The notes beneath the pieces are model-generated. The model made no database searches. It worked only from the letters and a program-made list of their open reading frames with translations, and was not told the DNA's origin. A stretch of 60,743 nucleotides of DNA, filler included, from Nemertoderma westbladi (lineage: Eukaryota > Animalia > Xenacoelomorpha), in assembly GCA_032718475.1 (NCBI GenBank). It is 3 parts of 3 records of this genome, joined end to end, with 100 filler letters (N's around TTAATTAATTAA, not from the genome) between each part and the next. Parts side by side here need not be neighbours in the genome. Positions count along the whole stretch, not along the records: positions 21,937 to 50,731 come from JAUCBJ010002222.1; 2 more parts are not named here. One strand, written 5' to 3'. Below, piece by piece: positions 1 through 60,743 of the stretch. The position numbers were made by a program, and so were the translations under genes. Each line of letters starts with the position of its first letter. Within the stretch, counting starts at the first letter, position 1.

Positions 1-407
1 TGCAGCATTGTGTATGAGTGAGTCTGTTAAAGAAGCAATTCCTAAAGAATGCGCCATATATGTGAATTATAATTAAGCCATATCGTTGTGAGTAGTTTAA
101 GTCATAACTCTGTTTATATAGATAAAGCGCCACGTCCTAAAGGAACTGTTAATATTCCCGAAGGTGAATAATATTGTCAGAGATTATATAATACTGTCAG
201 TCGAATAATACATTAGGCTTACATAGCAATAAAATTAAACCGTCGAACCCAATCTCCCGGGAATATCCAGCGGGTGAATGATCGCGCACAGATTGGTTTC
301 GACTAGTGTAGTGAATCAAATATTTGTCATAGGCTAAAAAGCGATTTAATATCTAGAAGACATCCTAATTTGGCGGGTTAAACTGCCAAAGGTCTGAAAG
401 CGCGAAC
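1..407 (+). mobile_element. 3' part of an LTR (family 2), truncated by the window start
   Basis: Near-identical to the reverse complement of 19277-19684. Ends ...GCGCGAACA at the same point as the copies at 19277 and 50885. Confidence 0.8.
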
Positions 408-7706: not shown

Positions 7707-7917
7707 ATTATATTAGTGATATTTCCGTTTCTCAGTGCGTCAAGCTCAGATCGTACTGTAGTAGACTTATTCCAGTATTCCTTCCTACTGCTGTACTGCT
7801 GTACTGCGGTCTGTCCTGCTACAAATCACATATGAAACAACAGAGCTGTATTTTGTTCGATTCTGCTATTGTCTGATTGTATGTGTTGGAAGCCGCTATT
7901 GTAAATTACATTGCCGC

Positions 7918-15065: not shown

Positions 15066-16259
15066 TTGAAGAGTTATCAAAAAAGAAAGACAGGCATCTG
15101 GCTGTTATCTTTGTTGACTTCTTGTTGATTCAGTCTCTCGCTCACGTATGTTCAGCATACTTTCATTATATGGGATTCCTGATGAAATTATTGCAGCAAT
15201 CAGATCAGTATACGATGGTTCGACAACATTTGTGTCTACTGTTGACGGTGACACATAACCATTTGAAGTGTTATGGGGCGTCCTCCAGGGAGACACACTT
15301 GCACCATTCTTATTCATAATTGTTGTTGACTATGTTCTACGCGTGTCCTTAGATTATCATAATGATGATGGGGTGATGATAACTCCACCTACTGGCTCCA
15401 GAAGTCGAGGAAATCCTGCCAAGTACCTAACTGATCAAGATTTTGCTGATGACTTAGGAGTACTCTCAGAATCACTAGAGGGAGCCCAACGGCTCCTCAG
15501 CTCATTAGAACATGCTGCTTCTAGTGTTGGTCTTTTTATTAACTCGAGAAAGACCACAAATTTTGACAGTTAACTTTGAAAGTCCTCAGCAAGTCTCTGA
15601 TCGGATGAGCATAAGCTCAAAGGATGGTATGCTTGAGCATGTGGACGACTTCTGTTACCTGGGATCATGGATCCGGAAGTCAGGTGAGGACCTTCGAATA
15701 CGTAAGGGAAAGGCATGGGCAGCCTTGAATAGGCTTTCCAGGATTTGGAAGTCACCGAGAATTAATCGGAAACTTAAGGTCCGATTATTTAGAGCAGCAG
15801 TAGTTCCAGTACTCCTCTATGGGAGTCCATGCTGGGCTCTAACTGCTGAGGACACCAAATCTCTGGATGGCACATTCACAAGAATGCTACGCCGGGTCCA
15901 TTGTGTCAAGTACAATGCACACATCTCCAACCAGACACTATATAACATTGGAGGTGTCTCATTGGTTCCCCCAAGCTTGACACTAGAACAAAATCGCCTC
16001 CGCTTTGCAGGACATTGCTTTCGCCGTGAGGACCAGCCAGTGCATAATCTTGTACTTTGGCAGCCTCATGGAGTGAATAAGCATGGTGGACAGCCCATGA
16101 CTTTCTTGAGACGCATCTTAAAGGACACTGGCCTTAAAGATGCGGATGATCTAGCAAATGTCATGGGTGATAGGGAGTTGTGGTGGCGCAATTTTGTTGA
16201 CAAGCCGGCACAGCATTCTTAAAAATGCAGCTGCAATGCAGCATGCCGATCCTAGTAGT
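15066..16259 (+). mobile_element. 5'-truncated RTE-clade LINE (family A), frameshifted RT
   Basis: GVLQGDTLAP, DFADD, FCYLGS, RLRFAGHCFR. Short 3' UTR with a TAGTAG tail. Close copy of 35652-37102. Confidence 0.9.
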
Positions 16260-21936: not shown

Positions 21937-22260
21937 CTTTTTGAGCAGGTCGGATTTTTAAATAAATTCTATAAATTTTGAGGCATTTACTGTATATGTA
22001 AATTAGCTCATGTTTAAGGATCTGTAATACCACCTGCATTGAAGTTCTTGCTCCAGACTTTGGTAAAATGGACCTAGATAGGTAGGTACTGTAAATCTTC
22101 TTTGACAATTTTAGCACAAAATTATTGTTTTTGAAAAATTTATGGGGGTTTTAGTAAGTGCGGGCTCTATTTTGGGAATCAAATATTTTGTGATAGACAA
22201 AGTATAGCAGTGTAGCATGTAATATTTCTGATCTAGATTAGGACTTGATGAGAAAGTAAT

Positions 22261-23022
22261 TATAAGAATGGCCACCTGGGTTTGATCCGCAGGAAACACA
22301 AACTCGGGGGAGAGACGAAAGACTCTCTCTTTAAATCGGGATTTGGCTAACCCAAAATGGAAGGTTCCGTTAAACTCACGGGTTCTGGCTGTCTGATTTG
22401 GAACTTACCTCTTACCTGAAGAAAAAATGTCTGTATCTACTAATTCCGAAAGTATGGTCGGTAACTGTTCAGACACAAGAGCTGAGGATACAAATAAACA
22501 ACATAAAAAGGTGTCTGGCTTCCGCTAACTCGTAGAGAGAACGGGGACAGAGCAAAAATGCACCTCAAAACCGAGACTGTAACCAGGTAACCGAGCACTT
22601 CAATAAACGCTCCGCCAACGTCGTCACGTTATTGGCTAATTGGCGGAAGGGGAAAAACGTAAATAACAAACCAAAGATCAATGATAAGCTAGGCTTTATT
22701 CACTATTCAGTCAGTCAGTTATTATCAGATTATCAACGATAGACTGCAATTTACAGAGTGCTTTAACGAAGGCCAAGCCTTGCACTGCAATTTACCCGTG
22801 AACACGTTAACAAAGGACTAGTTCCTCCCGACATCAATAACAACAATATTCCAAAATACTGAAACACCGGTAGTGTACTACCTACCACAGTATTGCTGTA
22901 CTGAACAAACAAAGTCAGATAGTGCTTTAACGAAGGCCAAGCCTTACACTGCAATACCGGTATCGGACATTTTGTCATCTAAGATACAGTAGAAAGTGGA
23001 CGAATAGGCAGATATTTTCATA
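22261..23022 (-). repeat. 3' LTR (762 bp)
   Basis: Differs from the 5' LTR by 4 substitutions and 1 indel (read by eye). Confidence 0.95.
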
Positions 23023-23037
23023 CCGCTCCTATTTATT
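23023..23037 (-). other. Polypurine tract
   Basis: AATAAATAGGAGCGG directly precedes the 3' LTR in element sense. Confidence 0.75.
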
Positions 23038-24513
23038 GCGACCAAAAAGAGCAATAAATACATAACAAAAATACAGGCTGGCCGTTGTAACAAATCATAT
23101 CTAGCACATATGTCGGGACGATAAAAGAAAAATAGAATTGTTTAACATATATACAACACACATGGTCAAGTGGCACATATAAAAACACAAAAATTAACCA
23201 TTAATTACCAATATTACAAACAGCACAAGAAGGTTGCTATATTTGGGTCCACTTCAGATTATAAAAATAAAGAACGTAAATTTTTTGATTCAAAGAGATA
23301 CACAAAATATAACCATCAATAAAAGTTACATAAATTTATGAAATCCACAAGTACTTGTTAAGCATTTTCAAAACGTAATAACAATGTAATTCTCAACTAA
23401 TAACAAGAAAATACGAGATTACTGAAAGAAGATAGATCAGGATCAGGGACTTTGGTTCAGCTTCATCTGAACGCTTCACCCAAAGAATCACTGAGGTCTC
23501 CACATTGACATTGAACGATAAGTTACTCTGCCGAGTATATAGAACTTCATTAACATCCCAAAAATCATCAACTGCGACCCAAGATGACGCAAACTGATCA
23601 AGGAAATGAAAGAGTTGAATCTGTCGTGTTCTTTCAAAGAGCAGATATTCCAATTTATGAACGACCTCCTAGTCAGAAGGGCAGTTCATTGATGTAACCA
23701 ACAGGGCCGGCGTGAGGGTCTGCGGGGTCTCTAAACTGGTACCGGTACACGAGAAAGGTGAGAGAATTCCCTATGGCGACTGAGATATAGACATAGAGGT
23801 GAGTAGTCGATCATCGAAGTTGATTATCAATGTGACAAATTAACAACCCGGCAGCAAATAGATCAAATGGGCGTGTAAATACATAATCTTGGTTCATCAA
23901 TGATTGTTTCCGCGAGTTAATTCTCTCGGGTTCTACAGTTCGACATAGATCCATAGTGAAGCTAATTTCCACATATTAAGGACTCAACCCAGAAAACAAT
24001 ATATTGGTATTGACCCATATGTGGCGTCATAATTATCCAGACTCAGATATAATGGTACCCGAAAATTTGCATGATGGCTTCATGATGGCATGAAGCAATT
24101 GGAATCTTGTCGGTGTCGGTAAAATCAGTAAGTCAGTTAGTCAGTCGTCAAACCAAACTATTTAATTGACCCAAAATCAATTAGCCAGAATCCATGTGTT
24201 GAACCTTAACTACTGTGACAAAGGGCATATATACATGGTTAACGATAACAAACATACACACAACCTTTCCATATATACAATTTTTAGGCGGATTAGTACT
24301 TGGATGATCAGGAGCTAATAATCCCACAAGGTTGAACAACAAATGTGCCATTCCTTTCTGCAGGTTAATAAGTACTGGTACATATCCAAATCCATATCAT
24401 ACTGTAGATATATAACTAACTAAGTAAGATAAGTTCCTAAGTTCTAATCACACAAAGTGTTTCTACAAATTTTCTGATATCATGTATAAATAAAATATCA
24501 GCTCGACTTTAAA

Positions 24514-27500
24514 TCATGCAATGGTAAGAGAAGGATTGGGCGAATGGGCACCGTAGTCCCCAGACCTTTCACGCTCACATTCGATTAAACAAAGTTTCTG
24601 TATAGGTCTATTAATCAGACGGCGGTCTTTCAGTCGTAAGGTAGCTGACCGCACTAGATTATCAACACTACAATGAACTTCCTGAACGACACCAGTGACC
24701 CATGAGCGTCGAGGTAAGCTTTCATCAACTAGAAGTACCAAATCTCCAACACAGAGGTTCTTCTTTTGAGATAACCATTTCGTTCGAATTTGAATAGAAG
24801 GAAGATAGTACTTTAGCCAATGGTCCCAGAAGATATCGCTCAACACCTGCATCACCTTCCAAGTTTTACTGCAATTAATATCTCGGGAATCGGGTTCAGA
24901 AATAGGAATCATCGCTGCTGGGCGGAGATAGAGGAAGTGAGATGGTGTGAGAGCTTCACAAGCACTAGGGTCGGCAGACAATCTAGTGAGAGGTCTACTG
25001 TTGATTATAGCCTCAATCTCCATTAGCAGAGTGCGTAGGGTTTCATCTGTCATATATATGTGTGCTGGTAGAACTTTGTATAGAGAGTTTTTGACGCTCT
25101 TAATTAAGCGCTCATAAGCGCCTCCATACCATGGTGTGTGTGGTGGGTTGAATGTCCAGTCTTGCCATTCAATCCCAATCTGATGGCAACTGGGTTACCA
25201 CGACGAGCAATAAACCGTCGAAGAGCCAGAATGAAGCAGTCCATCGACAGGCTACTTAATATGTCCAAGTGAACAGCTCGGGTTGTAAAACATGTGAATA
25301 TTATTCCCCAACGTTTTACATCAGTTCGATAACGTTTCACCATAAAAGGCCCAAATAAATCGGCTCCAGTCCGTGAAAATGCAGGCTGAAACATGGCTAA
25401 ACGTTCCTTCGGAAGAGGGCCTTCCTGTTGCGACATCAATGGAGCATTCACCTTCTGAAAAGCATGGCAACTCCTGATCGTACGCTTGAGATGCTTCCAT
25501 GGACTTATCATCAGATACTGAGTCCTGAGGTAACTGAGTATGTGGTCTTGACCAGCATGAAGCAATTTGTGATGAGCATCATGTATCAGTTGCCGCATAA
25601 GGTCTTGGTTTCGGATAATGATTGGAAATTTGCAATCATAATCAACTGGGGCAAAAGCAGTGCGACTCCCAACTCTAAGAAGGCCATCAGGGGCCATAAA
25701 GGTTGAAAATCTATCATTCGATGGTACCTGCTCCTCCTTGTAACATCTGAAATACTCTGGATGATGTATTGCTTGGGTCAATCTAATGATTTGCAATCTA
25801 GTCACATTGACCTCCTTCCTCAATAGTGGTCTAAAATTGATGTGTGAGTTATCCACTGGCTTCTGTAAAGATTTGTTTGCTATGCGCCAACAATGAAGTT
25901 TATTTAAGTATCCAACTCTCATTACATGCCAATGATAAAGTCTTTTCAACCAAGTGAAGTTATGAAAAAGCTTATCAGCTGAACTGCAGCGATGAAGCAT
26001 TCTTGGGATCAAAGGACTGATACCTTGTGAGGTCACAGGAAGGCAGATGGTTGGATTCAACTTAACCATCTCTACACTTTCTGATGTCGATACTGTTTTG
26101 GGGAGCTTGGATTTAAGAGTTTTTGGAACGGTGAGCTCTGCTCCCTTGCCAAGTTGAAGATCTTCAATCATTGGAGGCCATTCGTCTTCACTACCTTTTA
26201 AGAAATCAGGACCTTGGAGCCATGTTGGAGTGTTCAAGAGTTCAGCAACAGTGGCTCCACGAGATGCTATATCAGCTGGGTTGATCAGCCCGGGTACATG
26301 TCTCCACTGGAGCTTACTTGATCGGCGCAGGATGGTGACAACGCGGTTGACTACATATACAACAAAATGCTGCCTCTCATTGTGCAAGTACTGCAGCACT
26401 AGAGCAGCATCTGTCCAATATACAGTTTCAAATCTCGTTGAGAACTCTCTATACAGCAGCTGTGCAAGTTGTGTGGCTAATGTTGCAGCTTGGAGTTCAG
26501 CTCGAGGGATAGTGAGAGGGGGGTTTGGCATTATGTAAGAACGTGCAGTAACAAAAGATGTTTCGAACCCATTAGGAATGGCTCTCCTGAAATATGCAAC
26601 CGCTCCTAACCCAATCTTGCTAGCATCAGCAAATAGATGCAATTGCAATTTCTCTGATGGTAGTAGATGTTGAAAGTAAGTTCGATTAATACCGAATGAG
26701 TTTAGATCAGAAATTTCCTGCTCCCAACATTTCCACTGGCTGTTGAGATCATCGGGCAGAGGCTCATCCCACTCTAAATCACGCTGCCAACATTCCTTGA
26801 AAAGTACTTTGGCTCTCAATATAACTGGGGTTATGAAACAAATGGGGTCATAGAGGCTAGCCATAATGGAAGAGCATATCCTCTTTGTGCGAATCTCACC
26901 ACGATCCTTGAGCTTGATGTTAAAGAAAAACCTATCCTTCTCAGTATTCCAATATAGCCCCAATGTTTTGGTTGTTGGTAGAGGTTCAATATTGAGATCA
27001 ATATCAGGCTTTGCCCGATCTTTTGAATCGAATGACTGAAGTAATTGTCGGCTGTTGCTTGCAAACTTTGTAAGGTTAAATCCACCTCGTCTTAAGCAAT
27101 CTTTTATACCATGGGCAGTTTCAATAGCAGTGTATTCCGCAGGGGTTGATTTCACAATGTCATCCATCAATATATCATTCTTGATAGTATCATGAACATC
27201 AGCACTAAAGTCTAATGCATTATCCTCACATGTTCTTCTAACTGCCGCAATAGCGTTAGATGGCGAAGAGTTTATACCGAAGGCATTACAGCACATGCGG
27301 TACTGTTGTGGTTCACCTTGAAGGTCTTCGTTATTCCACCAATAAAAACGCAGGCTGTCCTTGTCTTCAGGGTTGACACGTACCTGCAGGAACATACCCT
27401 CTATATCTGAGGTGAAAGCATAATCATATAGTCGAAATCGGTAAAGTATACCAAATAAATAACGAAGAAGATTAGGTCCAGTTAAGAGTTCTGTATTCAA

Positions 27501-27721
27501 CGAATGCCCTTTATAGAGGGCAGCACAGTCATTAAAGACTCCACCTTTCCAGGCTTATCATCCCGAGTTACATAATGATGGGGCATGTAGTATGTCCGTG
27601 GGCCTGGTGTCAATTCTGATTCTGGAATCTCCTCAGCAGCCCCAATTTTCAAATAGTGGTCGATTTGAAACCGATACTTCTTATGAATGTCATCATTCCG
27701 CAACAACCTCTTTCTTAGCAT
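24514..27721 (-). pseudogene. pol: BEL pol: RT, RNase H, integrase and C-terminal DUF5641-like domain; frameshifts near 27730, 27540 and 25180
   Basis: YYMPHH, LLTGPNLL, DIEGMFLQV, FGINSSP, LMDD, LYDPICF, LHLFADAS, TIPRAELQAA, HKLLHAG, TGADLFGP, FTCFTTRAVHLD, PWYGGAYERLIKSVK (alternative frame), IEAIINSRPL, VGDLVLL...RPIQKL. Confidence 0.93.
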
Positions 27722-27730
27722 CAGACAACG

Positions 27731-30700
27731 TCATTTGGCCATTGGTTCATTACAAGGAGGTGGGTGTTCAAAGTCTCTCCATAAAAGGCCCACTTTGTAA
27801 TGCCCATCCGGGAGAAGTTGCAAAGAGGAATGCTGCATTTCTATTGCACGTTTTTCTTCCACAGAAAACCCAACTTCATCTTCTTCTGCCAATGCAGTAT
27901 ATTGTTTAAACCACTGAGACAGTTGCTCCTCAGAACTAGCTCCATACTCCTTACTTAAGGCAAGTTCATCTTCATCTTCCTCATGTAGCGATTTTATCAA
28001 ATCAAGATGGCAATCTTCTGCATGTGCATTATGTGGGTCATTTCTGATCATCTGTCGAAGCAACATTGGATCTTCTAGACCTTGAGGATCTTTGGATTGA
28101 TCAGGAAATCCATCTATACGTATGTCTCTAATCTTAAATGCAAGATGTTGTATCTGAATCTCAGCTTCCAGTTGATCTATTGAACATTCCAGTGGGTCAT
28201 CCGAAACATTATCAGAACTACTAATTGCAACACATGATATTGCCTTTCGTTCAACCAAAGTGCGCCTTGATGGTCCAGTAAAATACCATCCCAATGGAGT
28301 ACATATAGCGCGTGGTTCGAGAGGCTCTGGTGCTGTGGGTATGGATTTCAGCTGTATGAATGCCTCGTGGCAATTTTGACCGATGAGCATATTAACAGTT
28401 GCATAATCTGCTTCCGGAACTTTGAGATTGCACTTTGCTACAAAGGGATCATCACTCCAATCATAAGCATTGTCAGAAGAGGTTGCAAAATTCGCCAGGC
28501 TAAATACCTTGACATTTTCCAATGGTTTGGTAGCATAGGAGTCCTCGGCAGCAGAAATAGTAACCCTTGCTTCCTTCATGGTGAAATTTGTGTTCCAGGC
28601 TATTCCTGAGAGGTCAACTTTGACTGGGTTCGAGACTGAGCAGATCTTGTTGAAAACAGTTTCGTCTAGGAACGTCGCAGTGCTGCCAGAATCAAGTAGA
28701 GCTTTTACAGTCACCATGCCATTATCTCCCTGGACTTTAACTGTGAGAATAGGAAACTCCCTTACAGCTCTTTGGTTACTTAAGCCTGTGGTCAAAGTAG
28801 ATATGCTGCTGACAAGATTAACAGTTTCTGGTACATTATCCACAATAAGAGATTGTTCACTATCGGACTCATAATGATCCACCATATCAGGTGGTCCATC
28901 ATAGTTGTCTTCAACTAACAACTGCACAGTCTCATTGAAAGGGTGTTTAGAATCCACACGGTGGACCAATGAGTGATGTGGCTTCCCACAGTGCCGACAT
29001 CTATATTGGCTGCGGCATGTCTGTCGGCGATGATTGGCTAATAAACAGTTATAGCACAATTTAAAATCAGAAACTACCTTTCTACGCTCATCTACAGTAG
29101 CAGAAAGGAACTTTTCACATTTTTGCAATAGGTGCCTACCTTTACAAAGAGGACACTCAATAATAACTGGTTTTGGGTTATCAACTGGTGAGGGTAAATT
29201 ATCAGAATTGTCATTAAATTCAACCCGAAAATTTCGTTCATTATTATTATGAGAACTTAATTTTTGAACATTTTTATTTCCATTCAACTTCGTTTTACTA
29301 TTACTATGGTTAGTGCTACTAGGCTGTTTCTTTGTAAAATTAGCACTAATATGCTGATCTGTAGCACTTTCAAGAGCATCTTCCATAACAGTTGTCAGCC
29401 TAGATTTAATTTCTATTCTTTTGTGATCCGAAAATGGTTGAACATTTTTTCGACAACTTACAGGAAGACACAGCTGCATTTGGGTTTGGCGCTCTAAAAA
29501 TTCCAAAAAGTCCTTTACAGATGGATCTGTAGGGTCCTCTTTATTATACCTCATTTTGTAAACAATTTTAGCCCATGCTCTTTGTAATGCAGGTTCAAGT
29601 TTAGTAGCCAAGTCATTCAAAAGCTTAAGATTACTCAGTTGAGATTCCTGGGACAAGTATTCTAATTGTGAATGAATTTGACCTAATTCATCAAACATTC
29701 GGCTGGCAGATAGAGACTTAGGTAAATCATCTAGGCACTGCAATAACGACATGACTATACTGGATGGGTTGCCAAATCGTTGTACTAAAGCATTCCAAGC
29801 TTTATTATATCCATCAGGTATACCTACATAACGTTCAACTAGGCTACGTGGTGGACCTTCTAAAGCTACAATAAGATAACGCAATTTTTCTTCTTCTGAT
29901 AACGCCAAGCCACTCACACTAGATTTAAAATAATATTCAAATATAATCCATTCATTTGGCTTACCGCCATACTTTTTATACTCAGTCTTAGGTAGCGTTC
30001 TCTCCGCTCCAAGGCGTGACAAAACTCTAGCTACAGAATCATTCATTGAATCGCTTAAGGTGTCATTTCTATTCAAAATTCTAGGCGTAGTGACATTCCC
30101 AGGATTACATTTCACTGTATCTCTTAAAATGTTAATTAATTGTGCTTGGGCATCGAGCTGCTTTTCCATCTCATTAACCTTGGCATTTATATCATGTGTA
30201 TAATTAGGTTCACCGTTCGAATATTGAAGACCATTCCCTTCCTGGTGAACTTCAGTTCCTTTTGTGTTCATTGGTATTCTGGGCATATTAAACCGCACTT
30301 CTTGAGTTCCCTTGGGCACAAAGCTCGCATTTACCTCGAGGGAATGTGCCCGAGGATCAGTTGGGTAAACTCTATGAGAGTCACCAAAAAGTCGATTTTC
30401 CTTAAGAGGTTGAGTCTGATAAAAATACTTTGGCCGAGTGGTGCGAGACCTGGTGGTATCATTCCAATCAGAACTTCCCAAAGGCATCTTTGAAGCTTCA
30501 TTGGTGGCATTCTCTGCCACATCTTTATGACTCCTGGTCTCCCTATCATCCTCTCTTACTGTAACTTCCACCTGATTAATAGAAACTTGTGGACTCGCCA
30601 CTTTCCATGGTGTAGAATCGACTACTGCAGTTACTGGTAATAAATCACCTAACCGGGTTGAAGCAAAGTTAGGGACAGCAGTTTTTAACTCTTGGGAGAG

Positions 30701-31708
30701 TCGCAGTTCTTGACTGGGTTGTTGAGCTAGTTTGTCTCTCACTCCTATTAATGTCCTTTCTGTGCTTTGTCTCCGCTTTCTAGGAGTTGACCCAACTGAG
30801 TTGGCGCTGGAACAATGACTAGATTGAACACAATATGATAGTGCAAGTTCCTTTTCTAATTTCAAGGAGTTTAACTTCTTCCGGGATTCCAGCTCATCAC
30901 GTTCCTCCTGCATACGACGCTCAATATCGGCTTGTCGCTTCCTTTCAATATTTTCTCGAAGTCTCTCCTCGCTTTCACATTGCTCTATTTCCTGGGTGAG
31001 TGCCAATTTTTCTTTCTCATATCGTTTCCGAATAGCCTCGGCTTCGATTTCTGCTTCTATTTCCGCTTGTAATCGAGCAGCTTCCTTTAGCTGCTGTCTT
31101 TGTAAACGAGAAGCAGATGATACCATGGATCCATCACTTGATTCGATATTGTTAATGGGCGTTTGAATTCTTTCGCTCTCAAAATGTGGTAACTCAGGTG
31201 GAGTAACTCCTGTTCGGCCAAGTATAGTGTTATAAACTGAATGTGTTCGTTGTAACTGCCTTCTGACATGAGATCGTGCTTTATCAACCAAGGCTGGCAG
31301 TTCCATGTATTTGCCATACCGCTCAAAGAGTTGGACAGTACACAAAGCTCTATCGAACCTTGGTTGTATCGCCGCATAAAGCCGTTTGCCTGTTTCTGGT
31401 GAGAGAGAGGTTGGCGAAGATGACAAGTTTACACTGTGTCGTTGGATGTAGCGTGTGTATGCTGCTGAATAACCGCCTAGTGAACGAGTAATAGACTCAA
31501 TATCTTTGTCTGGGTCGAATCCGGCGGCACGCATTTCAGACAGAATCACAGTAATTTCATCACAATAATGGGATGATAAATTGTCTAAAGAAGGCTGGAC
31601 AGAGACAGGAGGGATTGTTTCAACAATTGATGAATCATGGGGACCTAGCTGTTCATCCACCTCAACCTCAATTTCACTAAAAGAAAGGCCAGATTCATTC
31701 GTGGCCAT
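27731..31708 (-). CDS. gag: BEL gag-protease, 1325 aa (originally one ORF with pol)
   Basis: Coiled coil; DUF1759-like LPKTEYKKYGGKPNEW..F; three BEL zinc knuckles CPLCKGRHLLQKC, CYNCLLANHRRQTC, CRHCGKPHHSLVH; protease ALLDSGS. Confidence 0.93.
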   Translation of the reverse strand: MATNESGLSFSEIEVEVDEQLGPHDSSIVETIPPVSVQPSLDNLSSHYCDEITVILSEMRAAGFDPDKDIESITRSLGGYSAAYTRYIQRHSVNLSSSPTSLSPETGKRLYAAIQPRFDRALCTVQLFERYGKYMELPALVDKARSHVRRQLQRTHSVYNTILGRTGVTPPELPHFESERIQTPINNIESSDGSMVSSASRLQRQQLKEAARLQAEIEAEIEAEAIRKRYEKEKLALTQEIEQCESEERLRENIERKRQADIERRMQEERDELESRKKLNSLKLEKELALSYCVQSSHCSSANSVGSTPRKRRQSTERTLIGVRDKLAQQPSQELRLSQELKTAVPNFASTRLGDLLPVTAVVDSTPWKVASPQVSINQVEVTVREDDRETRSHKDVAENATNEASKMPLGSSDWNDTTRSRTTRPKYFYQTQPLKENRLFGDSHRVYPTDPRAHSLEVNASFVPKGTQEVRFNMPRIPMNTKGTEVHQEGNGLQYSNGEPNYTHDINAKVNEMEKQLDAQAQLINILRDTVKCNPGNVTTPRILNRNDTLSDSMNDSVARVLSRLGAERTLPKTEYKKYGGKPNEWIIFEYYFKSSVSGLALSEEEKLRYLIVALEGPPRSLVERYVGIPDGYNKAWNALVQRFGNPSSIVMSLLQCLDDLPKSLSASRMFDELGQIHSQLEYLSQESQLSNLKLLNDLATKLEPALQRAWAKIVYKMRYNKEDPTDPSVKDFLEFLERQTQMQLCLPVSCRKNVQPFSDHKRIEIKSRLTTVMEDALESATDQHISANFTKKQPSSTNHSNSKTKLNGNKNVQKLSSHNNNERNFRVEFNDNSDNLPSPVDNPKPVIIECPLCKGRHLLQKCEKFLSATVDERRKVVSDFKLCYNCLLANHRRQTCRSQYRCRHCGKPHHSLVHRVDSKHPFNETVQLLVEDNYDGPPDMVDHYESDSEQSLIVDNVPETVNLVSSISTLTTGLSNQRAVREFPILTVKVQGDNGMVTVKALLDSGSTATFLDETVFNKICSVSNPVKVDLSGIAWNTNFTMKEARVTISAAEDSYATKPLENVKVFSLANFATSSDNAYDWSDDPFVAKCNLKVPEADYATVNMLIGQNCHEAFIQLKSIPTAPEPLEPRAICTPLGWYFTGPSRRTLVERKAISCVAISSSDNVSDDPLECSIDQLEAEIQIQHLAFKIRDIRIDGFPDQSKDPQGLEDPMLLRQMIRNDPHNAHAEDCHLDLIKSLHEEDEDELALSKEYGASSEEQLSQWFKQYTALAEEDEVGFSVEEKRAIEMQHSSLQLLPDGHYKVGLLWRDFEHPPPCNEPMAK

Positions 31709-31800
31709 TTTGTTTAATTACTGATTTATAAGGTTAAATTAGGTAAGGCCTATGTTAAATACAGTACCGGTAGTAACAGGCCTAAAATATTATGTATATA

Positions 31801-33524
31801 GGGTAAACTGGGGTAATTTGGGACATGGGGGAATTTGGGACAGGCTGGGGTAATTTGGGACAAGTCTTTTCTTAACTGTAAGTGCAGTGGGGTTTGGTGG
31901 GTTGTTTAAATTATAGGCCTACACTTAGCTTCATACTTTCTCTAGCTCTTTTAAATGCTGTAGGGCTGTCGGGTAGACTAGCCGTCACAGGTAAGTCGCA
32001 AGTGTAAGGTGTTCGCTTTCAGATATTTCGCCCTCTAGCAGCAGACTGGAGAACTGCAGCAGCAGCAGATTAATCACCTTCCTCAAAAAGACACAGCATG
32101 TAGTAGTAGTGATGTAGTAGGTCAGTAGGTACTTATATTCCAAGACTCAGCTTAAACAGATTAAGATGAAGAAAATGGAGACATGGGTAAGCGGAAGATC
32201 ACTTTCATACATTTTGCCCTCTAGGAGCAGACTGGAGAACAGAACTGCAGACCAATTTCCGACCCCACCAAGACTGCAAGACACACTACTGACGCAGGAT
32301 GCATTCTAAAGAGAGCACATATATACTGATACATACAGACAGACAGACAACATATTTGACAAGTTTCAGCTAGGACGGATCATAAATAATGGAATGAGTC
32401 AAGGATGTCACTTTCAGACATTTTTGCCCTCTAGCGGCAGACTGGAGAACAGATGACCGACAACCTTCTTCCCAAAGTTTCAACATGTGGTATAGTAGGG
32501 CCTATCAAATAGCCTAAGGCAGTAAGGTAATCGAATTAGAATCACGGAAATGGGAGAAGGTTTTCACTTTCAGACATTTCGCCCTCTAGGAGCAGACTGG
32601 AGAACTGCAGATGAATCACCTTCCTCAAAAAGACACATCATGTAGTCGTGATCTGGTACTATATTCCAAGACTCAACTTAAACAGATTAAGGTCAAGTAA
32701 ATGGCAGAATGGGTACAGGGGAAGTGGAAGGATCACTTGTATACATTTTGCCCTCTAGTCAGCTAGTGGTAGACTGAAGAAATGCAGACCACTTACCGAC
32801 CCCTCCAAGACACAGCAGCAGCAGCACATTGATGCAGGATGTATTCTGGCTGAGCACATACTGGCATAAAGACAGACAAACATACAACATATTTTTGACA
32901 AGTTTCAGCTTGAACGGATCATAAATATCGGAATGAGCCAAGGATTTCACTTTCAGATATTCGGCCCTCTAGCGGCAGACTAAAGAACTGCATGCAGATT
33001 AGCCCCCTTTGAATGACACATGACAGCTATGAGCTAATGGTCGGTCTAATACAAGTATGACAAGTTTCAGCATTGTCTTTTGGTCGGATTAAATGCAGAG
33101 AGATCTGGAGATGGCAGATGGGATGACATTTATTAATGTTTGACATGTAGCCCTCTAGCGGGAGACTGTTGTACTGATGGTGTCGAACAGTCTCTAAAAT
33201 CCCAACTTTTGGTCTTATTGATGCATTGTACAATTTCTCAACAAAGTTTGTGTCAATTACAATGGGCTACTACTGTTCGTTTTATGTTATGTCCCAAATT
33301 CCCCCAACTGTCCCAAATTACCCCATGCTGGGGTAATTTGGGACACTGATGAATATTAATTAAAAAAGGGTAATTAATTATTTGAAAATAAAAATTAAGT
33401 AATTAGTTTGATAGAATGGGTACATGGTGCATACTTGATAAGGTCGGATTATCAAAAAAATGTTTTTAAGATTCTGAAAAAAGCTTTAAAGGACGATTTT
33501 GTCCCAAATTACCCCAGTTTACCC
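31801..33524. mobile_element. Non-autonomous Tc1/mariner(pogo)-like DNA transposon in the BEL leader
   Basis: Perfect 25-bp TIR GGGTAAACTGGGGTAATTTGGGACA, TA TSD (31799-31800, 33525-33526), subterminal GGGGTAATTTGGGACA repeats, internal repeat array of about 187 bp. Confidence 0.88.
32029..33161 (-). promoter_or_regulatory. Array of seven CTCF-like motifs
   Basis: GCCCTCTAG-based cores on + at 32029, 32215, 32425, 32580, 32749, 32963, 33149. The reverse complement CCGCTAGAGGGC resembles the CTCF core CCASYAGRKGGC. Confidence 0.55.
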
Positions 33525-34209
33525 TACCAGTATATTGATATATAGTAGGCCTAGGCCTAAAGCAGTAAAGTACCAATACTAATAACTAAAATAGTACCGG
33601 TAGGCCCAAGGTACAAAGTTACCGGTACCGGTATGATCTGATATATATATATAGTATGCAGGCAGGCCTAATTAGAAGTACAGAACTACAGAAGTAATCA
33701 AATGGAAGCTTAATTTAATATTATAATACCGGTAGTTTATTACTAGGCTCACAGATTTCAAATACCAGTAGCGCCACCAGCACAATTCTGCAATTTGCCG
33801 CCTGTTACAGTCGTACAGTGTTATACGTACCGGTAATATATTTAACTTTGAATTATTACCGGTATAAATAAATAAATTTTGTCACCCGATCAGAACTGAC
33901 TCGGCAAAATGATTTAATAAATAGAACCCCACACACACTCCAGATAAACACATAAAATGTACCGGTATCGGTCTGCTGGTATGGTACAGAAACTGGAGAG
34001 CAAAAGCTGAAAGTGGGTCGCCCAACGCTGCAACGTATGTCAGTATGGCGTATGGCTAACTAGCACCATGTAGGCCTACAGCAGTAGGTATCCGGTACGG
34101 TACCATATGTAACCTAGTGTCAGTATCAGTACACACACACAGACACACGCAGGGCAGTTCTTTATTTATGGCAGGCTATAGAAGAACAAAAGAACTGCTA
34201 AATCAGAAC

Positions 34210-34220
34210 TCCTTTGTTAA
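34210..34220 (-). other. Putative self-priming primer-binding site
   Basis: Element sense TTAACAAAGGA directly after the 5' LTR. It is complementary to LTR-internal TCCTTTGTTAA (34768-34778; 22807-22817). No TGG tRNA-type PBS. Confidence 0.6.
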
Positions 34221-34983
34221 TATAAGAATGGCCACCTGGGTTTGATCCGCAGGAAACACAAACTCGGGGGAGAGACGAAAGACTCTCTCTTTAAATCGGG
34301 ATTTGGCTAACCCAAAATGGAAGGTTCCGTTAAACTCACGGGTTCTGGCTGTCTGATTTGGAACTTACCTCTTACCTGAAGAAAAAATGTCTGTATCTAC
34401 TAATTCCGAAAGTATGGTCGGTAACTGTTCAGACACAAGAGCTGAGGATACAAATAAACAACAGAAAAAGGTGTCTGGCTTCCGCTAACTCGTAGAGAGA
34501 ACGGGGACAGAGCAAAAATGCACCTCAAAACCGAGACTGTAACCAGGTAACCGAGCACTTCAATAAACACTCCGTCAACGTCGTCACGTTATTGGCTAAT
34601 TGGCGGAAGGGGAAAAACGTAAATAACAAACCAAAGATCAATGATAAGCTAGGCTTTATTCACTATTCAGTCAGTCAGTTATTATCAGATTATCAACGAT
34701 AAGACTGCAATTTACAGAGTGCTTTAACGAAGGCCAAGCCTTGCACTGCAATTTACCCGTGAACACGTTAACAAAGGACTAGTTCCTCCCGACATCAATA
34801 ACAACAATATTCCAAAATACTGAAACACCGGTAGTGTACTACCTACCACAGTATTGCTGTACTGAACAAACAAAGTCAGATAGTGCTTTAACGAAGGCCA
34901 AGCCTTACACTGCAATACCGGTATCGGACATTTTGTCATCTAAGATACAGTAGAAAGTGGACGGATAGGCAGATATTTTCATA
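34221..34983 (-). repeat. 5' LTR (763 bp), termini TATGAA...CTTATA; AATAAA at 34655-34660
   Basis: Boundaries fixed by LTR-LTR identity and the TSD. Confidence 0.95.
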
Positions 34984-35651
34984 GTAATGTTCTTCGATAA
35001 GATAACAGTCTCGGAAATAAGCACTTTTTTGTCACTAATTTTAGTTTACTAAAATTCCATTATGCTGTCCGATTTTAGTTTTTGCAGGAATTACACCTAA
35101 AATGCCATCGAATGCAAAATTCAATACACGAGGGCAGTACATCTGAATTTCGGTTAAATTAAATTACAGTAGAAGTTATTTCTGACACGTTTTTTTTTAT
35201 CAACAACTATTTTATCTACAACTAATTTATCCTTTTTTTTTTTTCTATTAGGGCCTATATTATTATAAAACTCGTTTCCGGTAACAAAAAATTAATTTCG
35301 AACTACCATATCTCCACGCCATACATTAACTATGAACAGTATTTCCAGTATGTCACCACGTCATTTTTTGGTTGTTCCAGAAAGTTTAAGAGCATAACTA
35401 CAAATAATTCCCCACAAATAAATAAAATTAAATTCTCCATTGTTCATAATTACTGTAGCTCTTTAAAGCTTTACTGCCCATGTTTTATTATTTTCCTGTC
35501 ATCAGGTCTCTAACTAATAACACAGCACCTGTCGGTCGACAGGAGTATTTTTTCACAGGAATGACTCGCTGAAAAAAATGGCCCGTATTATCGGCTGGCC
35601 GTAAGGCCCGTGCCTTATGTGCCTTAAGGTAAATCCGGCACTGCAATTTGT

Positions 35652-37102
35652 AAATGTCAATTCAAAATGAAATGAAAACAAATAAGTTGGTGCCAGTTCC
35701 CAAGAAGGGGGTTGAAGTGTTAGGGTTCCCCCTAACACTCTATGGTTCTTTTCGGGGAAACTCATTGATCTCGATTGCTGCTAAGCTATACAATAGGATT
35801 CTATTAAATCGCATCAGGGATCCCATTGAGAGACTGCTCCGTGGAAATCAGAATGGGTTCCGTAAAGGTCGTGGGACCATGGAGCCCATTTTGGCACTTA
35901 GAAGGATAATTGAAGAATTATATCAAAAAAGAAAGACAGGCATCTATCTGGCTGTTATCTTTGTTGACTTCTTCAAGGCTTTTGATTCAGTCTCTCGCTC
36001 ACGTATGTTCAGCATACTTTCATTATATGGGATTCCTGATGAAATCATTGCAGCAATTAGATCAGTATACGATGGTTCGACAACATTTGTGTCTGCTGTT
36101 GACGGTAACACAGAACCATTTGAAGTGTTATGGGGCGTCCTCCAAGGAGAAACACTTGCACCATTCATGTTCATTATTATGGTTGACTATGTTCTACGCA
36201 TGTCCTTAGATCATCATAATGATGATGGGGTGATGATAACTCCACCTACTGGCTCCAGAAGTCGAGGAAATCCTGCCAAGTACCTAACTGATCTAGACTT
36301 TGCTGATGACTTAGGAGTACTCTCAGAATCATTAGAGGGAGCCCAACGGCTCCTCAGCTCATTAGAACATGCTGCTTCTAGTGTTGGTCTTTTTATTAAC
36401 TACAGAAAGACCAAAATTCTGACAGTTAACTTTGAAAGTCCTCAGCAAGTCTCTGATCGGATAATCATAAGCTCAAAGGATGGTATGCTTGAGCATGTGG
36501 ACGACTTCTGTTACCTGGGATCATGGTTCCGGAAGTCAGGTGAGGACCTTCGAATACGTAAGGGAAAGGCATGGGCAGCCTTGAATAGGCTTTCCAGGAT
36601 TTGGAAGTCACCGAGAATTAATCGGAAACTTAAGGTCCGATTATTTAGGCTCCTCTACGGGAGTCCATGCTGGGCTCTAACTGCTGAGGACACCAAATCT
36701 CTGGATGGCACATTCACTAGAATGCTACGGCGGGTTCATTGTGTCAAGTACAATGCACACATCTCCAACCAGACACTATATAACATTGGAGGTGTCTCAT
36801 TGGTTCCCCCAAGCTTGACACTAGAACAAAATCGCCTCCGCTTTGCGGGACATTGCTTTCGCCGTGAGGACCAGCCAGTGCATAATCTTGTACTTTGGCA
36901 GCCCCATGGAGTGAATAAGCATGGTGGACAGCCCATGACTTTCTTGAGACGCATCTTAATGGACACTGGCCTTAAAGATGCGGATGATCTAGCAAATGTC
37001 ATGGGTGATAGGGAGTTGTGGCGGTGCAATTTTGTTGACAAGCCGGCACAGCATTCTTAAAAATGCAGCTGCAATGCAGCATGCCGATCGTAGTAGTAGT
37101 AG
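35652..37102 (+). mobile_element. 5'-truncated RTE-clade LINE (family A) with open RT frame 35654-37060
   Basis: LVPVPKKG, AAKLYNRILLNRI, QNGFR, FVDFFKAFDSV, GVLQGETLAP, DFADD. (TAG)4 tail. Probable TSD CAATTTGT (35644-35651, 37103-37110). Confidence 0.92.
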
Positions 37103-39290: not shown

Positions 39291-39628
39291 ACTAATAACG
39301 TTACTAGTGTAGACCTACTGTATAACTATAGATAAACTTTCTATATAATTTTCACAGTACAGTATTTTCGAAATTATATGTGATATTGTTTTATTTCACA
39401 TCAACTTCTCAAGCAATCTTCTTCTTATTGGCCTCGTCTCATTAATATTCAAAGTAAATCACAAAGAATTTACTATGTAGCGGTCCACCTAAAAATATAA
39501 ATATTGTGGTTATATTTAATTGTATTTAATGTGTTTTACGTTGGCCTACTATTACATTTGTGTACTGGTACAACCTATAAACAGCTACTCTAATATTTTT
39601 CTACAGTAAAGAGATTGAACATGAACAT

Positions 39629-42444
39629 TAGGGTGTTACAAAAATCACTTTTTTGCCCCAATTGCTTGGAAACTTCGACATGTTTTGCCATTTTAATGTA
39701 GAAGTACAATGCAAAAAACCGCTTTGAAAAATATTTAGTGGAAGAAGTGTCACACGAGTCACAAAATCTGAGAAATTTAACAAAATATAGCAGTTTTAAT
39801 TTACCGATAAATCTAGCGATAGATGATTGCAATGATCTGAAACTCATGTTATGTAATGCATTTATGATGGGCTTTCCAATAACGTTTTTGGCATTGTGAA
39901 ATTGACAAGATCAGATGTGTCACATTGAGTTTGAAAAATTGAATTTTTTTAAAAAATCTAAGAAATTTAACAAAATATAGCAGTTTTAATTTACTGCTAA
40001 ATCTAGCGATAGATGATTGCAATGATCTGAAACTCATGTTATGTAATGCATTTATCATGGGCTTTCCAATAACGTTTTTGGCAATGTGAAATTGACAAGA
40101 TCAGATGTGTCACATTGAGTTTGAAAACTTAACTAATTCTATATGGGAATGTGCTGGTCCCCCCTGAGTTAGTTCAACTATTACTGACGTGGCCATCTTT
40201 ACATTGCCGCGATACACAGTAACTAACCTGTCATAAGCCCCCTCAGAGGCATTGTCATCACCTATAAACGTACTTACCAATTCCTTCAGTTGACCTCTCA
40301 ACTGTTGGTATAAGTAGTTGAATTTCTCAGTCGGTGAGAAATCCTGTTGAGCGACATTAGTCTTGATATAGTTGATGAAGGTTCTCCAATGTTTAGATAA
40401 ACCAGTGAAGTGCGGAGGATGTAATGGTGGAAGACTGTGTCTCGGACTGAACTTAGAAAACTCCACTGTGATTGAGTTGACCATAGTATTGTCTTCCCTT
40501 CCTACCCGTTGATGGACATAAGTTGGAATCGGTTCCAACTGATGAGTAGGATAACTTACCTGTGGACGAGTACGCGAATTCGTCCTGTGATAGGCTACCT
40601 TCTCACTGACTGGTGATCTATAGTCAGTCTCAAACTCTGAGTCTGCCTGAATATTTATAACTGGGCATTCTTGCCATTGTGGTGGTTTAAACTTGGGATG
40701 GTCTTCAGGACATTGGTACTGTTGTTCCTGTACTCTAAGCTTTTCATTCTCATGTTGAGCTCGTTCTACATTGTCATTGACCTCAGGGATATTACACCTA
40801 ACATGGTCGAACTCCTTATCCACCTGCACTTTGACCATGACGTACTGAATTCTTTGCTGCACTTCTTGCACAACACCACATAGTGACAGTTTGAACTTGT
40901 TCCTGCACCTGTTGGACGGACTTGTGACTGAATATGTTGGACTTTACCTTTTTCTATGGATGACTTCATCCCACACATCCTTATTACCTTCCCTAATTGC
41001 TAAATTTAATTGATACATATGGATGTTGGGCTTACCTGGAGTAGGACTTGGATTAAACCGCTCACTGTCTCGAGCTCCATCCCACTCGGCTTGATCGCCT
41101 TCGTTAGTCACAAATCTTTATCGAGACTCTACTTGAGGTCGTATGGGATTCAAGACAAAGGGTGTTACCTGAAGTGTGGTTGGTTCTACTTGGTGTCTAG
41201 GTTCGGGCTCATGGCAACCTCCGGGGTGACTTACCTGGTTTCCAGGAGTCCCTGCATCAACTGGGTCCACCCAATCCTTGGCAACCAGTCTATAGATTTA
41301 TTGCGCATAATGTTGATGTGCTTCTATGGTGTCGGCTCCATGTATCTCGTTGAAACGCACAATCGATGGTTCAGGCTGCTGATTAGTGACTCAGCGCCGT
41401 CATTGTTTAGCAGGGATTGAGCCTGCTCGAGTTCTTGAGCAGTCCGTTGCTGTCGATCCTCCAATTCATAGGCCTTCTGTTGCGATTTGGCCGCAGCCAA
41501 CTGTCTTTGTTGTTCTAGAATTTATGCCTCCTTGTGTTGTTCCATCTCGAGTTTCTTCCTGGTGATGTCGCGTTGATGAGGCAAATGTTTGTTCTCTTCA
41601 TTGACTGCTCACATTGAGTCGGGCTTACCGACTGCCTTCCAGCCTACCGATTTTAGCAGTCTTCCGACATTGGCAGTTTTCCATCCAAAAATTGGTAGTA
41701 GGCCTACCGGATCGGTTTAACTGTACGAATTTAACAAAATCACCTATTATTAAATTTGTAATTTTAAAATATATGTAATTGTGGAAATGCTGCAATTTAA
41801 TATTATTGTACTGTTGTTGTTGTAGTAACACACCTTACTGCCCTACTTCAGTACTATGTTGCATGGCCTTTATGAATGAAGCAAAACAAAAGGGTCATGG
41901 AGTAACTTAGTAGTAGATGAAGTAGTAGTGTAGAAGTACATACAGTAGTACTGGTAAGGAGAGGAACACACTCAGTTTTCATACATTTTGATCTTCAATT
42001 TTGAAATTGTAGAAATGATAAATGCATTACATAACATGAGTTTCAGATCATTGCAATCATCTATCGCTAGATTTATCAGTAAATTAAAACTGCTATATTT
42101 TGTTAAATTTCTTAGATTTTTTAAAAAAATTCAATTTTTCAAACTCAATGTGACACATCTGATCTTGTCAATTTCACAATGCCAAAAACGTTATTGGAAA
42201 GCCCATCATAAATGCATTACATAACATGAGTTTCAGACCATTGCAATCATCTATCGCTAGATTTATCTGTAAATTAAAACTGCTATATTTTGTTAAATTT
42301 CTCAGATTTTGTGACTCGTGTGACACCTCTTCCACTAAATATTTTTCAAAACGGTTTTTTGCATTCTACTTCTACATTAAAATGGCAAAACATGTCGACG
42401 TTTCCAAGCAATTGGGGCAAAAAAGTGATTTTTGTAACACCCTA
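39629..42444. mobile_element. Foldback hAT-like element: 430-bp inverted arms, 8-bp TSD, enclosing a BEL gag fragment
   Basis: TAGGG...CCCTA ends; TSD ATGAACAT (39621-39628, 42445-42452). Arms 39629-40058 and 42015-42444 contain a 189-bp repeat unit. Confidence 0.9.
40110..41620 (-). pseudogene. gag: Fragment of a different BEL/Pao gag (coiled coil plus DUF1759-like region)
   Basis: SLPPLHPPHFTGLSKHWRTF...EKFNYLYQQLRGQLKELV...AYDRL parallels the gag at 27731-31708. Stops upstream. Confidence 0.75.
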
Positions 42445-42768
42445 ATGAACATGTAGGCCTACTGTGTACAGTACATACCGTACAGTCATACCGGTAACGA
42501 CTGAATCACGGTAACAGCTGACACAAGCTGCCAAGCCTGAAGGATTCATGGTCCTACTTATATCAGAATAAAAACAATAATACTGTCAGACTTTACCGGC
42601 ACCATTATATTACAGTATTCTGGTATTACCAGACTGCAGTACTAATGTTTTCATTTAAGCTAATTCATTTATTTTTTTTTATTCACACAACAGACATTAC
42701 AATAATAGTGTTAAAATTGTTTTTTTTTAATTGACGCCTCCATAATAGGCAAGTTTATTTGCTTTTAA

Positions 42769-43424: not shown

Positions 43425-43567
43425 TTAATATATATTAAAATAAAATAACGTGTTACAATATAATATAATATACAGTATATAAAAATGTTATAGATTGAAA
43501 GTTAACTGGTATAGATTAAAATAATTTAAAAGGTTGGATAAAGAATCACGGATCACGGATCCGAAAG

Positions 43568-44104
43568 ATCACGGCGTAAGCAATGTCCTTCAAAGCGGAG
43601 GCGATTTTGTTCTAGTGTCAAGCTTGGGGGAACCAATGAGACACCTCCAATGTTATATAGTGTCTGGTTGGAGATGTGTGCATTGTACTTGACACAATGA
43701 ACCCGGCGTAGCATTCTTGTGAATGTGCCATCCAGAGATTTGGCGTCCTCAGCATTTAGAGCCCAGCATGGACTCCTATAGAGGAGTACTGGAACTACTG
43801 CTGCTCTAAATAATCGGACCTTAAGTTTCCGATTAATTCTCGGTGACTTCCAAATCCTGGAAAGCCTATTCAATGCTGCCCATGCCTTTCCCTTACGTAT
43901 TCGAAGGTCCTCACCTGACTTCCGGATCCATGATCCCAGGTAACAGAAGTCGTCCACATGCTCAAGCATACCATCTTTTGAGCTTATGCTCATCCGATCA
44001 GGGACTTGCTGAAGACTTTCAAAGTTAACTGTCAGAATTTTGGTCTTTCTGGAGTTAATAAAAAGACCAACACTAGAAGCAGCATGTTCTAATGAGCTGA
44101 GGAG
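43568..44104 (-). mobile_element. Internal RTE family A fragment
   Basis: LLSSLEHAASSVGL...RLRFEGHCLR, near-identical to about 15494-16030. Confidence 0.9.
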
Positions 44105-44559
44105 TCCATTAAATTCGGCACATGATAATGATAGAATAAAAAACGTTTTTTTTGTCAATTTCCAGAATAGAGGGGTTCTACCCCCCTTAATTATTACATG
44201 ACGGTTTCACTGACAGGGTTGACACCAAGAATTAGATTGGAAGGCAGGACCCGCGAAGTAATTTATTTTCAGAAAATTAACTTCCCGTTTTTCTCTGTAA
44301 ATTCTGTAATGTTCTAAAACGTTACTGTTTATTATATTCGGATATTTTAAGAATATATCTTCTATTAATGTTTTATTATTTGTCAGTTGGAGAGTTAACG
44401 TTGATGATGAGATTCTTGGAAGCGATGAAGCCGTATTAGGAAAGTAAACTTGATCTTATCGAGTTCTTTCAAGATAGTCATAGTGTTGAGCTACTTCAGG
44501 CAGAGCGTATGATAAAGCTGGTAGGATTTTCATGTCAAATATATACATAACTTAACTTT

Positions 44560-56286: not shown

Positions 56287-56424
56287 CTGCAAATAAATAA
56301 TGTACAGGGCCTATAACTACTTCGACCTACGGCCTCAGTAGTTATACAGATTAATTGGCAAGATTACAGATTTGGTATTATATTGAAGAATAAACGTCCT
56401 GCTGGTCACCGTTATAACTTATAA

Positions 56425-59400: not shown

Positions 59401-60743
59401 TGCGTTTATTCGAGTGTATGTCGTGGGGGACGGGGGGGCGTTTATTCGAGTGTATATCGTGGGGGGCGGGGGGTGTTTATTCGAGTGTATATCGTGGGGG
59501 ACGGGGTGCGTTTATTCGAGTGTATGTCGTGGGGGACGGGGGGCGTTTATTCGAGTGTATATCGTGGGGGGCGGGGGGCGTTTATTCGAGTGTATGTCGT
59601 GGGGGACGGGGTGCGTTTATTCGAGTGTATGTCGTGGGGGACGGGGGACGTTTATTCGAGTGTATGTCGTGGGGGACGGGGGGCGTTTATTCGAGTGTAT
59701 GTCGTGGGGGACGGGGGACGTTTATTCGAGTGTATGTCGTGGGGGACGGGGGGCGTTTATTCGAGTGTATGTCGTGGGGGACGGGGGGCGTTTATTCGAG
59801 TGTATATCGTGGGGGGCGGGGGGCGTTTATTCGAGTGTATGTCGTGGGGGACGGGGTGCGTTTATTCGAGTGTATGTCGTGGGGGACGGGGGGACGTTTA
59901 TTCGAGTGTATGTCGTGGGGGACGGGGGGCGTTTATTCGAGTGTATGTCGTGGGGGACGGGGTGCGTTTATTCGAGTGTATGTCGTGGGGGACGGGGGGC
60001 GTTTATTCGAGTGTATATCGTGGGGGGCGGGGGGTGTTTATTCGAGTGTATATCGTGGGGGACGGGGTGCGTTTATTCGAGTGTATGTCGTGGGGGACGG
60101 GGGGCGTTTATTCGAGTGTATGTCGTGGGGGACGGGGGGCGTTTATTCGAGTGTATGTCGTGGGGGACGGGGTGCGTTTATTCGAGTGTATGTCGTGGGG
60201 GACGGGGAGCGTTTATTCGAGTGTATATCGTGGGGGGCGGGGGCGTTTATTCGAGTGTATGTCGTGGGGGACGGGGTGCGTTTATTCGAGTGTATGTCGT
60301 GGGGGACGGGGTGCGTTTATTCGAGTGTATGTCGTGGGGGACGGGGGGCGTTTATTCGAGTGTATGTCGTGGGGGACGGGGTGCGTTTATTCGAGTGTAT
60401 GTCGTGGGGGACGGGGGGCGTTTATTCGAGTGTATATCGTGGGGGCGGGGGTGTTTATTCGAGTGTATATCGTGGGGGACGGGGTGCGTTTATTCGAGTG
60501 TATATCGTGGGGGACGGGGTGCGTTTATTCGAGTGTATGTCGTGGGGGACGGGGGGCGTTTATTCGAGTGTATGTCGTGGGGGACGGGGTGCGTTTATTC
60601 GTGTGTATGTCGTGGGGGACGGGGGGCGTTTATTCGAGTGTATATCGTGGGGGGCGGGGGGTGTTTATTCGAGTGTATGTCGTGGGGGACGGGGTGCGTT
60701 TATGTCGAGTGTGATGTCGTGGTGGACGGGGGGCGTTTATTCG
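56425..60743. repeat. 35-bp G-rich satellite GTTTATTCGAGTGTAT(G/A)TCGTGGGGG(A/G)CGGGG(G/T)GC, about 120 copies, runs off the window
   Basis: Direct reading. It generates the spurious 1399-aa ORF with a 35-aa period. Confidence 0.97.

Follow-up and report, generated by a model that had tools for sequence, protein, structure and literature searches.

A BEL/Pao retrotransposon of Nemertoderma westbladi with a predicted self-primer in its LTR, and relatives whose primers may be assembled by splicing

Cer7-type BEL elements of C. elegans are reported to be independent of host tRNA; their primer is a separate tRNA-like RNA that derives from the internal region. In the BEL/Pao element described here, by contrast, the sequence that complements the primer-binding site (PBS) sits in the LTR, and no tRNA-like sequence was found. 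The family as a whole, Belpaoviridae, is described by the ICTV as primed by host tRNA, with an 18-nt PBS for tRNA-Arg or tRNA-Gly, and as poorly understood (PMC8742986). Self-priming is reported, in the accessible parts of the respective papers, for Tf1, in which RNase H cuts between bases 11 and 12 (PMC7175516), for Tj1 (PMC4600332) and for Tf2 (PMC5341516), and it has been predicted for Tcn1 and for the TAR lineage of plant Ty1/copia elements, which includes Houba and Osr-1 (PMC6317226).

The element lies on the minus strand of a stretch of N. westbladi DNA of 60,743 nucleotides, which is referred to here as the window. Like Tf1 and Tf2 of Schizosaccharomyces pombe, Tj1 and the Tf1/sushi-Tcn1 group of Ty3/gypsy elements, as far as the accessible texts describe these, it has no tRNA PBS, and about 11 nt of its own LTR RNA are complementary to a PBS directly after the 5' LTR. 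Unlike that group, it belongs to a different superfamily, with BEL/Pao domains and without the chromovirus-type Pol of Ty3/gypsy. The Tf1 primer consists of the first 11 nt of the transcript, whereas for the window element a start near 34778 is only proposed. The BEL/Pao relatives mostly have a primer split by a predicted spliceosomal intron, and the accessible texts on Tf1-type elements describe none. The TAR lineage represents a second superfamily in which, as here, self-priming has been predicted from complementarity, but with copia domain order, in plant hosts and with no mention of an intron-split primer in the accessible part of the source (PMC6317226). Compared with Belpaoviridae (Semotivirus) as defined by the ICTV, the element shares LTRs, PPT, a 5-bp target-site duplication (TSD), the order Gag-PR-RT-RH-IN and the typical Pfam domains; it departs in having no 18-nt tRNA PBS, in its length of 12.7 kb with a nested insertion, and in its TA...TA ends (PMC8742986). 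Literature searches, with Levin's primary papers, Repbase Reports, GyDB, subscription journals and supplements outside their scope, returned no paper on BEL/Pao self-priming or on a splice-built primer, and the accessible parts of PMC554778, PMC8220671, PMC12451622, PMC3118150, PMC6238403, PMC8672886 and PMC2774666 do not treat BEL/Pao priming.

The element measures 12,723 nt including the nested insertion and has the following parts, in the direction of its transcription.

34984-34988, minus strand: target-site duplication ATTAC, 5' copy, 5 bp
34221-34983, minus strand: 5' LTR, 763 nt, termini TA...TA
31799-33526, no strand given: nested insertion within the leader, bounded by terminal inverted repeats of 27 nt that match perfectly
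27731-31717, minus strand: Gag (DUF1759, three Cys/His knuckles) and protease frame, with an in-frame stop at its end
25104-27554, minus strand: frame for RT, RNase H (Pfam Peptidase_A17) and the N-terminal part of integrase; both ends are frame breaks
24514-25194, minus strand: frame for the C-terminal part of integrase, with DUF5641
23023-23037, minus strand: PPT, the purine-rich tract preceding the 3' LTR
22261-23022, minus strand: 3' LTR, 762 nt
22256-22260, minus strand: target-site duplication ATTAC, 3' copy, 5 bp

The insertion is a recent one, since its LTRs are only 4 substitutions and 1 indel apart, and it is by now broken: the coding region is interrupted in three places, namely at 27733-27731 (a stop) and near 27550 and 25150 (frame breaks). 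Both LTRs start and end with TA (34983, 34221; 23022, 22261) and not with TG...CA, though the TSD is perfect, and the LTRs of two relatives (L019 and L042) likewise end in ATA. Given the TA...TA termini, the end specificity of the window element's integrase may have shifted. The nested insertion (1.7 kb) contains 7 copies of a 42-nt repeat at a spacing of 155-214 nt; we take the core of this repeat to resemble the CTCF motif, with 4 copies matching a strict pattern.

Because its frames carry DUF1759, Peptidase_A17 (E 5e-39), integrase H2C2 and DUF5641, the element is assigned to BEL/Pao, and PF05380 is found in 120/120 of the best homologues listed. These homologues are BEL/Pao proteins from echinoderms, cnidarians, tunicates, nemerteans and fish that are about 35-43% identical to the window protein, and homologue searches with that protein returned none closer. 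The acidic motifs of RNase H are present by eye. The catalytic motif of RT reads LMDD (about 27120-27090, minus strand), where the homologue alignment has FYVDD. As membership rests on protein homology, the missing tRNA PBS is a departure from the family as described and not a ground for exclusion.

Other features of the window include a second BEL/Pao gag fragment (DUF1759, E 6e-5) at 40110-41700, between 440-nt inverted repeats (39619-40058 and 42015-42454), and three copies of an RVT_1-type, non-LTR-like element (35654-37060, 15125-16222 and 43553-44206). At 6480-7712, on the minus strand, there is an uninterrupted frame of 410 amino acids with thioredoxin domains, similar to protein disulfide isomerase. 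A G-rich 35-bp tandem array of more than 115 copies occupies 56316-60743 and reaches the end of the window.

The leader of the window element begins at 34220 with TTAACAAAGGAGTTC. No TGG occurs within its first 101 nt, in agreement with the original prediction that a tRNA-type PBS is missing after the 5' LTR. The sites concerned are these:

34210-34220, minus strand: PBS without TGG, directly after the 5' LTR
34206-34209, minus strand: PBS extension GTTC, pairing with 34785-34782 across a 3-nt bulge
34768-34778, minus strand: predicted self-primer of 11 nt (LTR nt 206-216), the complement of the PBS; the next two letters are CG
34779-34781, minus strand: 3-nt bulge TAG, at the position of the relatives' 3' splice site; may be what is left of an intron, a post hoc reading
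34655-34660, minus strand: the LTR's single AATAAA, a predicted poly(A) signal with a GT-rich stretch after it
22807-22817, minus strand: 3' LTR copy of the primer sequence

The perfect complement that had been claimed holds, 34778-34768 being the exact reverse complement of 34220-34210, and the 3' LTR carries the site as well (22817-22807). The 4-bp extension over the 3-nt bulge is real too (5 bp with G-U), and such a bulged extension of the duplex is reached in 0.8% of shuffles. The AATAAA, which had been placed about 110 nt from the site, is found at 34660-34655, 118 nt past the site's start. Downstream of this poly(A) signal, at 34605-34575 on the minus strand, two CCAAT boxes and two TGACG words are clustered, a possible antisense or internal promoter. 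The probability of a chance match had been set too low, at about 2e-4: 15 of 20,000 dinucleotide shuffles of the LTR gave an 11-nt match at offset 0 (7.5e-4, about four times higher), and 54 of 20,000 did so with offsets 0-3. When spliced alternatives were allowed, 7 of 1000 PBS shuffles sufficed; a chance count over window positions gave 20/108,486, and one other 11-mer complementary to the LTR occurs among 11,168 internal positions. The paired core, GTTAAC, is palindromic. Taken on its own, the 11-nt pairing of the window element is real but modest evidence, and it is not decisive.

In predicted folds, 9 inner pairs of the duplex form with a pairing probability of 0.97-1.0 when the RNA starts at 34800 or later, falling to 0.84 and 0.30 for starts at 34830 and 34900. 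An R:U5 stem is also present in the predicted fold of the window; across 29 LTRs such stems are not above chance (0/29 with p<0.05), so that a conserved stem beside the primer, as in Tf1, is unsupported in the BEL/Pao set. A tRNA gene search of the window returned none.

One part of the LTR is shared with other elements of the same species:

34757-34800, minus strand: island of 43-44 nt kept in two other LTR families of the same species, with flanks that are not alignable

The two families have 3 and 5 other letters within the island. Downstream of it, one family has 178 letters in place of 244, and upstream the letters are unalignable in both. Just upstream of the island the letters of both are rich in A and T, and as judged by eye a TATA-like word lies there, about 30 nt ahead of 34780, which lends weak support to a putative start site near 34778-34780. 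Contigs from two studies have no other letters at either pairing site in the main copy; they possibly represent the same locus, and one run is possibly the source of the window. A search of viral contigs with a single protein, an alignment and a 19-nt island motif found nothing.

The homologue alignment led to 80 metagenome loci and 10 loci from MAG assemblies, 90 in all. The latter (L081-L090) are BEL/Pao loci in bacterial MAG assemblies, several with paired LTRs, and are likely host contamination. Two sets were drawn from these loci, the others being near-duplicates of the same families or lacking an LTR or PBS. Set A comprises 17 LTR/PBS pairs in which the LTR end was fixed independently by the repeat boundary, and set B comprises 20 regions in which the LTR end was chosen within the test and is thus not independent. 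In set A, 15 of 17 PBSs pair over 10-15 bp with their own LTR, each score being matched by 0-7 of 1000 PBS shuffles. Three of the 17 are contiguous like the window (10-11 pairs), and 12 reach 10-15 perfect pairs only across a predicted GT-AG intron. As to the other two, L028 has a TGG-type PBS with no match to its own LTR; L041 was failed by the stricter acceptor filter, yet has 11 pairs in the blind split test described below and in the sister comparison. In set B, 14 of 20 regions reach at least 10 bp (12 spliced, 2 contiguous), each matched by 0-2 of 25 shuffles; L089 has just 8 bp of own-LTR pairing. The complements recur in distant BEL/Pao families with different letters, and foreign PBSs mostly fail: for 13 of 16 positive LTRs, the window's included, none of 17 foreign PBSs equals the own score. 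Many paired cores in the relatives are palindromic or nearly so, which raises the chance of pairing. At L034:56-60 and L070:56-60 a TGG stands at or near the start of the PBS, yet these pair over 14 and 10 bp with their own spliced LTRs, so TGG alone can mislabel a PBS as tRNA-type.

In relatives the complement of the PBS usually starts directly behind a pyrimidine tract with AG and is continued by the exon end of a GT donor that lies upstream. In a blind split test on 33 LTRs the best two-part complement was taken with no splice signal required; its borders were GT..AG in 20 of 33, against 0.38 expected, and GTRAG..AG in 16 of 33, against 0.015 expected. For set A together with the window, the tally was 9/18. 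Five set B regions to which no self-pairing end was assigned (L048, which is TGG-type, L012, L063, L080 and L022, which is without a donor region) were excluded from this test, from those on the base after the duplex and the stem, and from the sister comparison. The predicted introns measure 66-451 nt, and their donors are GTAAGT or GTGAGT in 20 of 26. The pyrimidine-tract-AG sites had also been considered as initiators, a candidate that was dropped since upstream GTRAG donors lengthen the duplexes. A precise intron-less copy of a predicted junction was found for 0/26 among the 90 loci.

Covariation, which had been put forward as a check in related BEL families, was assessed in eight sister pairs: their introns are only 37-62% identical and the pairing is kept, with changed letters on both sides of the duplex in 5 of 8 (between L081 and L083, for example, two paired positions have changed on either side). 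Counts across families do not represent independent origins, because the families share ancestry; their letters differ, however. Since the primer spans the predicted exon-exon junction, it ends downstream of the first exon in most relatives. Of 13 set A LTRs, only 4 have TATA-like words upstream of the donors, which does not allow start sites to be deduced. Judging by the relatives, the primer would not need to be the first nucleotides of the transcript. The original prediction of self-priming in a BEL element is well supported by the comparison with relatives, in which 15/17 of set A self-pair; the strict analogy with Tf1, with the first 11 nt as primer and a putative start at about 34778-34780, is not required by them.

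The window element itself is of the contiguous type, as are L019, L057, L068 and L088. Only 4 of 15 letters before its TAG are pyrimidines, compared with 8-13 in 26 relatives of the split type (8 being the filter floor). One candidate intron is present nearby:

34820-34908, minus strand: candidate intron upstream of the primer, with a GTAAG donor and a pyrimidine-rich CAG acceptor 41 nt before the site; clear of the primer

A spliced primer built from this donor (34908) is a weak candidate and was rejected: the gain from upstream GT donors is at most 3 pairs, G-U included, and the spliced score is 8 as against 11 for the contiguous primer. The LTR also contains a 35-nt direct repeat (34917-34883 and 34752-34718) with GT, a candidate donor, in the upstream copy and GC in the downstream copy.

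On a quick tree, contiguous types are scattered among split families (e.g. L088 with L081, L057 with L059), which suggests that contiguous primers arose by repeated loss of the intron. The first tree did not include eleven loci whose intact frames were short. One group of 41 rows (SH-aLRT 91, not starred) holds every self-pairing type, that of the window among them, and both TGG-type elements lie outside it. The window protein has a long branch (at most 44% identity) outside every starred group, which leaves it only loosely tied to the relatives. The window element is probably an intron-less form whose primer became ready-made by intron loss, and its TAG bulge, within the CTAGT that had been called initiator-like, stands where relatives have the AG of the 3' splice site and may be a remnant of the acceptor, a post hoc idea.

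What was found directly is that the complementarity exists, that it recurs and that it coincides with splice signals, and we suggest that the window element likely primes reverse transcription with its own LTR-derived RNA instead of a tRNA, as one member of a broad BEL/Pao lineage with Tf1-like self-priming. On the model of Tf1, the site would be transcribed and the 5' part of the genomic RNA would fold onto the PBS; the RNA would then be cut immediately 3' of the duplex, with the element's RNase H as the probable nuclease, and the new 3' end would be extended through U5 and the remaining R, after which the strong-stop DNA would jump to the 3' R. In the split-primer relatives, full pairing would be open only to a spliced 5' end. 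Reverse transcription would never copy the junction, as the cut would come a few bases beyond it, and an unspliced 3' LTR would be the source of the inherited intron. By this reasoning the LTR intron could survive reverse transcription, and splitting of the primer could spare the 3' R copy from cutting. It seems fairly likely that the host spliceosome builds the primer from an intron-split LTR in a large lineage of BEL/Pao elements from marine invertebrates that also has protein relatives in fish, such that only the spliced 5' end primes and the intron is handed on by the unspliced 3' copy, which is spared from cleavage, and that contiguous primers reflect repeated intron loss, the window keeping the acceptor triplet as a bulge.

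The duplex between LTR and PBS might instead be real and serve another purpose, such as genome dimerisation via palindromic cores, a restriction of packaging to spliced RNA or the masking of the PBS as a switch, with something else acting as primer. The frequent palindromes among the cores, GTTAAC in the window included, and the lack of a conserved Tf1-like R:U5 stem fit such a role. We nevertheless consider it unlikely, as the pairing always starts 0-5 nt after the LTR end, where the 3' end of a primer must lie, these elements have no TGG site available, and the duplex is followed by C in 22 of 29 cases and by CG in 15 of 29, the window among them, as expected of a cut site. A half of a host tRNA or another small host RNA might also prime at the PBS, leaving the LTR match secondary or fortuitous; priming by half-tRNAs at a PBS that lacks TGG is known for Ty1/copia lineages from the accessible part of PMC6317226, tRNA-Arg or tRNA-Gly is what the ICTV gives for the family (PMC8742986), and a chance of 7e-4 to 7e-3, which is that of the window alone, is not small for a genome scan. 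This is made quite improbable by PBS letters that differ among families and track each family's own LTR, and by the splice-site coincidence in 20/33, which it leaves unexplained; moreover, a search of 22000-35200 against Rfam with E up to 1 gave no match, so no element-encoded tRNA-like primer is seen.

Self-priming could, finally, occur in trans, with a short LTR-only transcript (spliced in relatives) that ends near the LTR poly(A) signal and primes a separate genomic RNA. Such transcripts would contain the site, which is upstream of that signal, and cis and trans are inseparable by sequence alone. Against this very improbable route stand the favourable folding predicted in cis, the cis route of Tf1 given in the accessible part of PMC7175516, and the need for a cut at the same place in either case.

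Priming by the element's own LTR RNA, as preferred here, would make the window element a self-priming form that is new for a family described as tRNA-primed, and the predicted splice-assembled form in its relatives is the most surprising part. If true, self-priming, which has been proven only in Tf1-type gypsy elements, would be extended to a third LTR superfamily, and it would account for the absence of a findable PBS from many BEL/Pao elements. A primer assembled by splicing, of which no description was found, would tie reverse transcription to pre-mRNA splicing; the model predicts the positions of junctions, the cut sites and an unspliced 3' LTR, and the window element would be useful to it as a natural intron-less counterpart.
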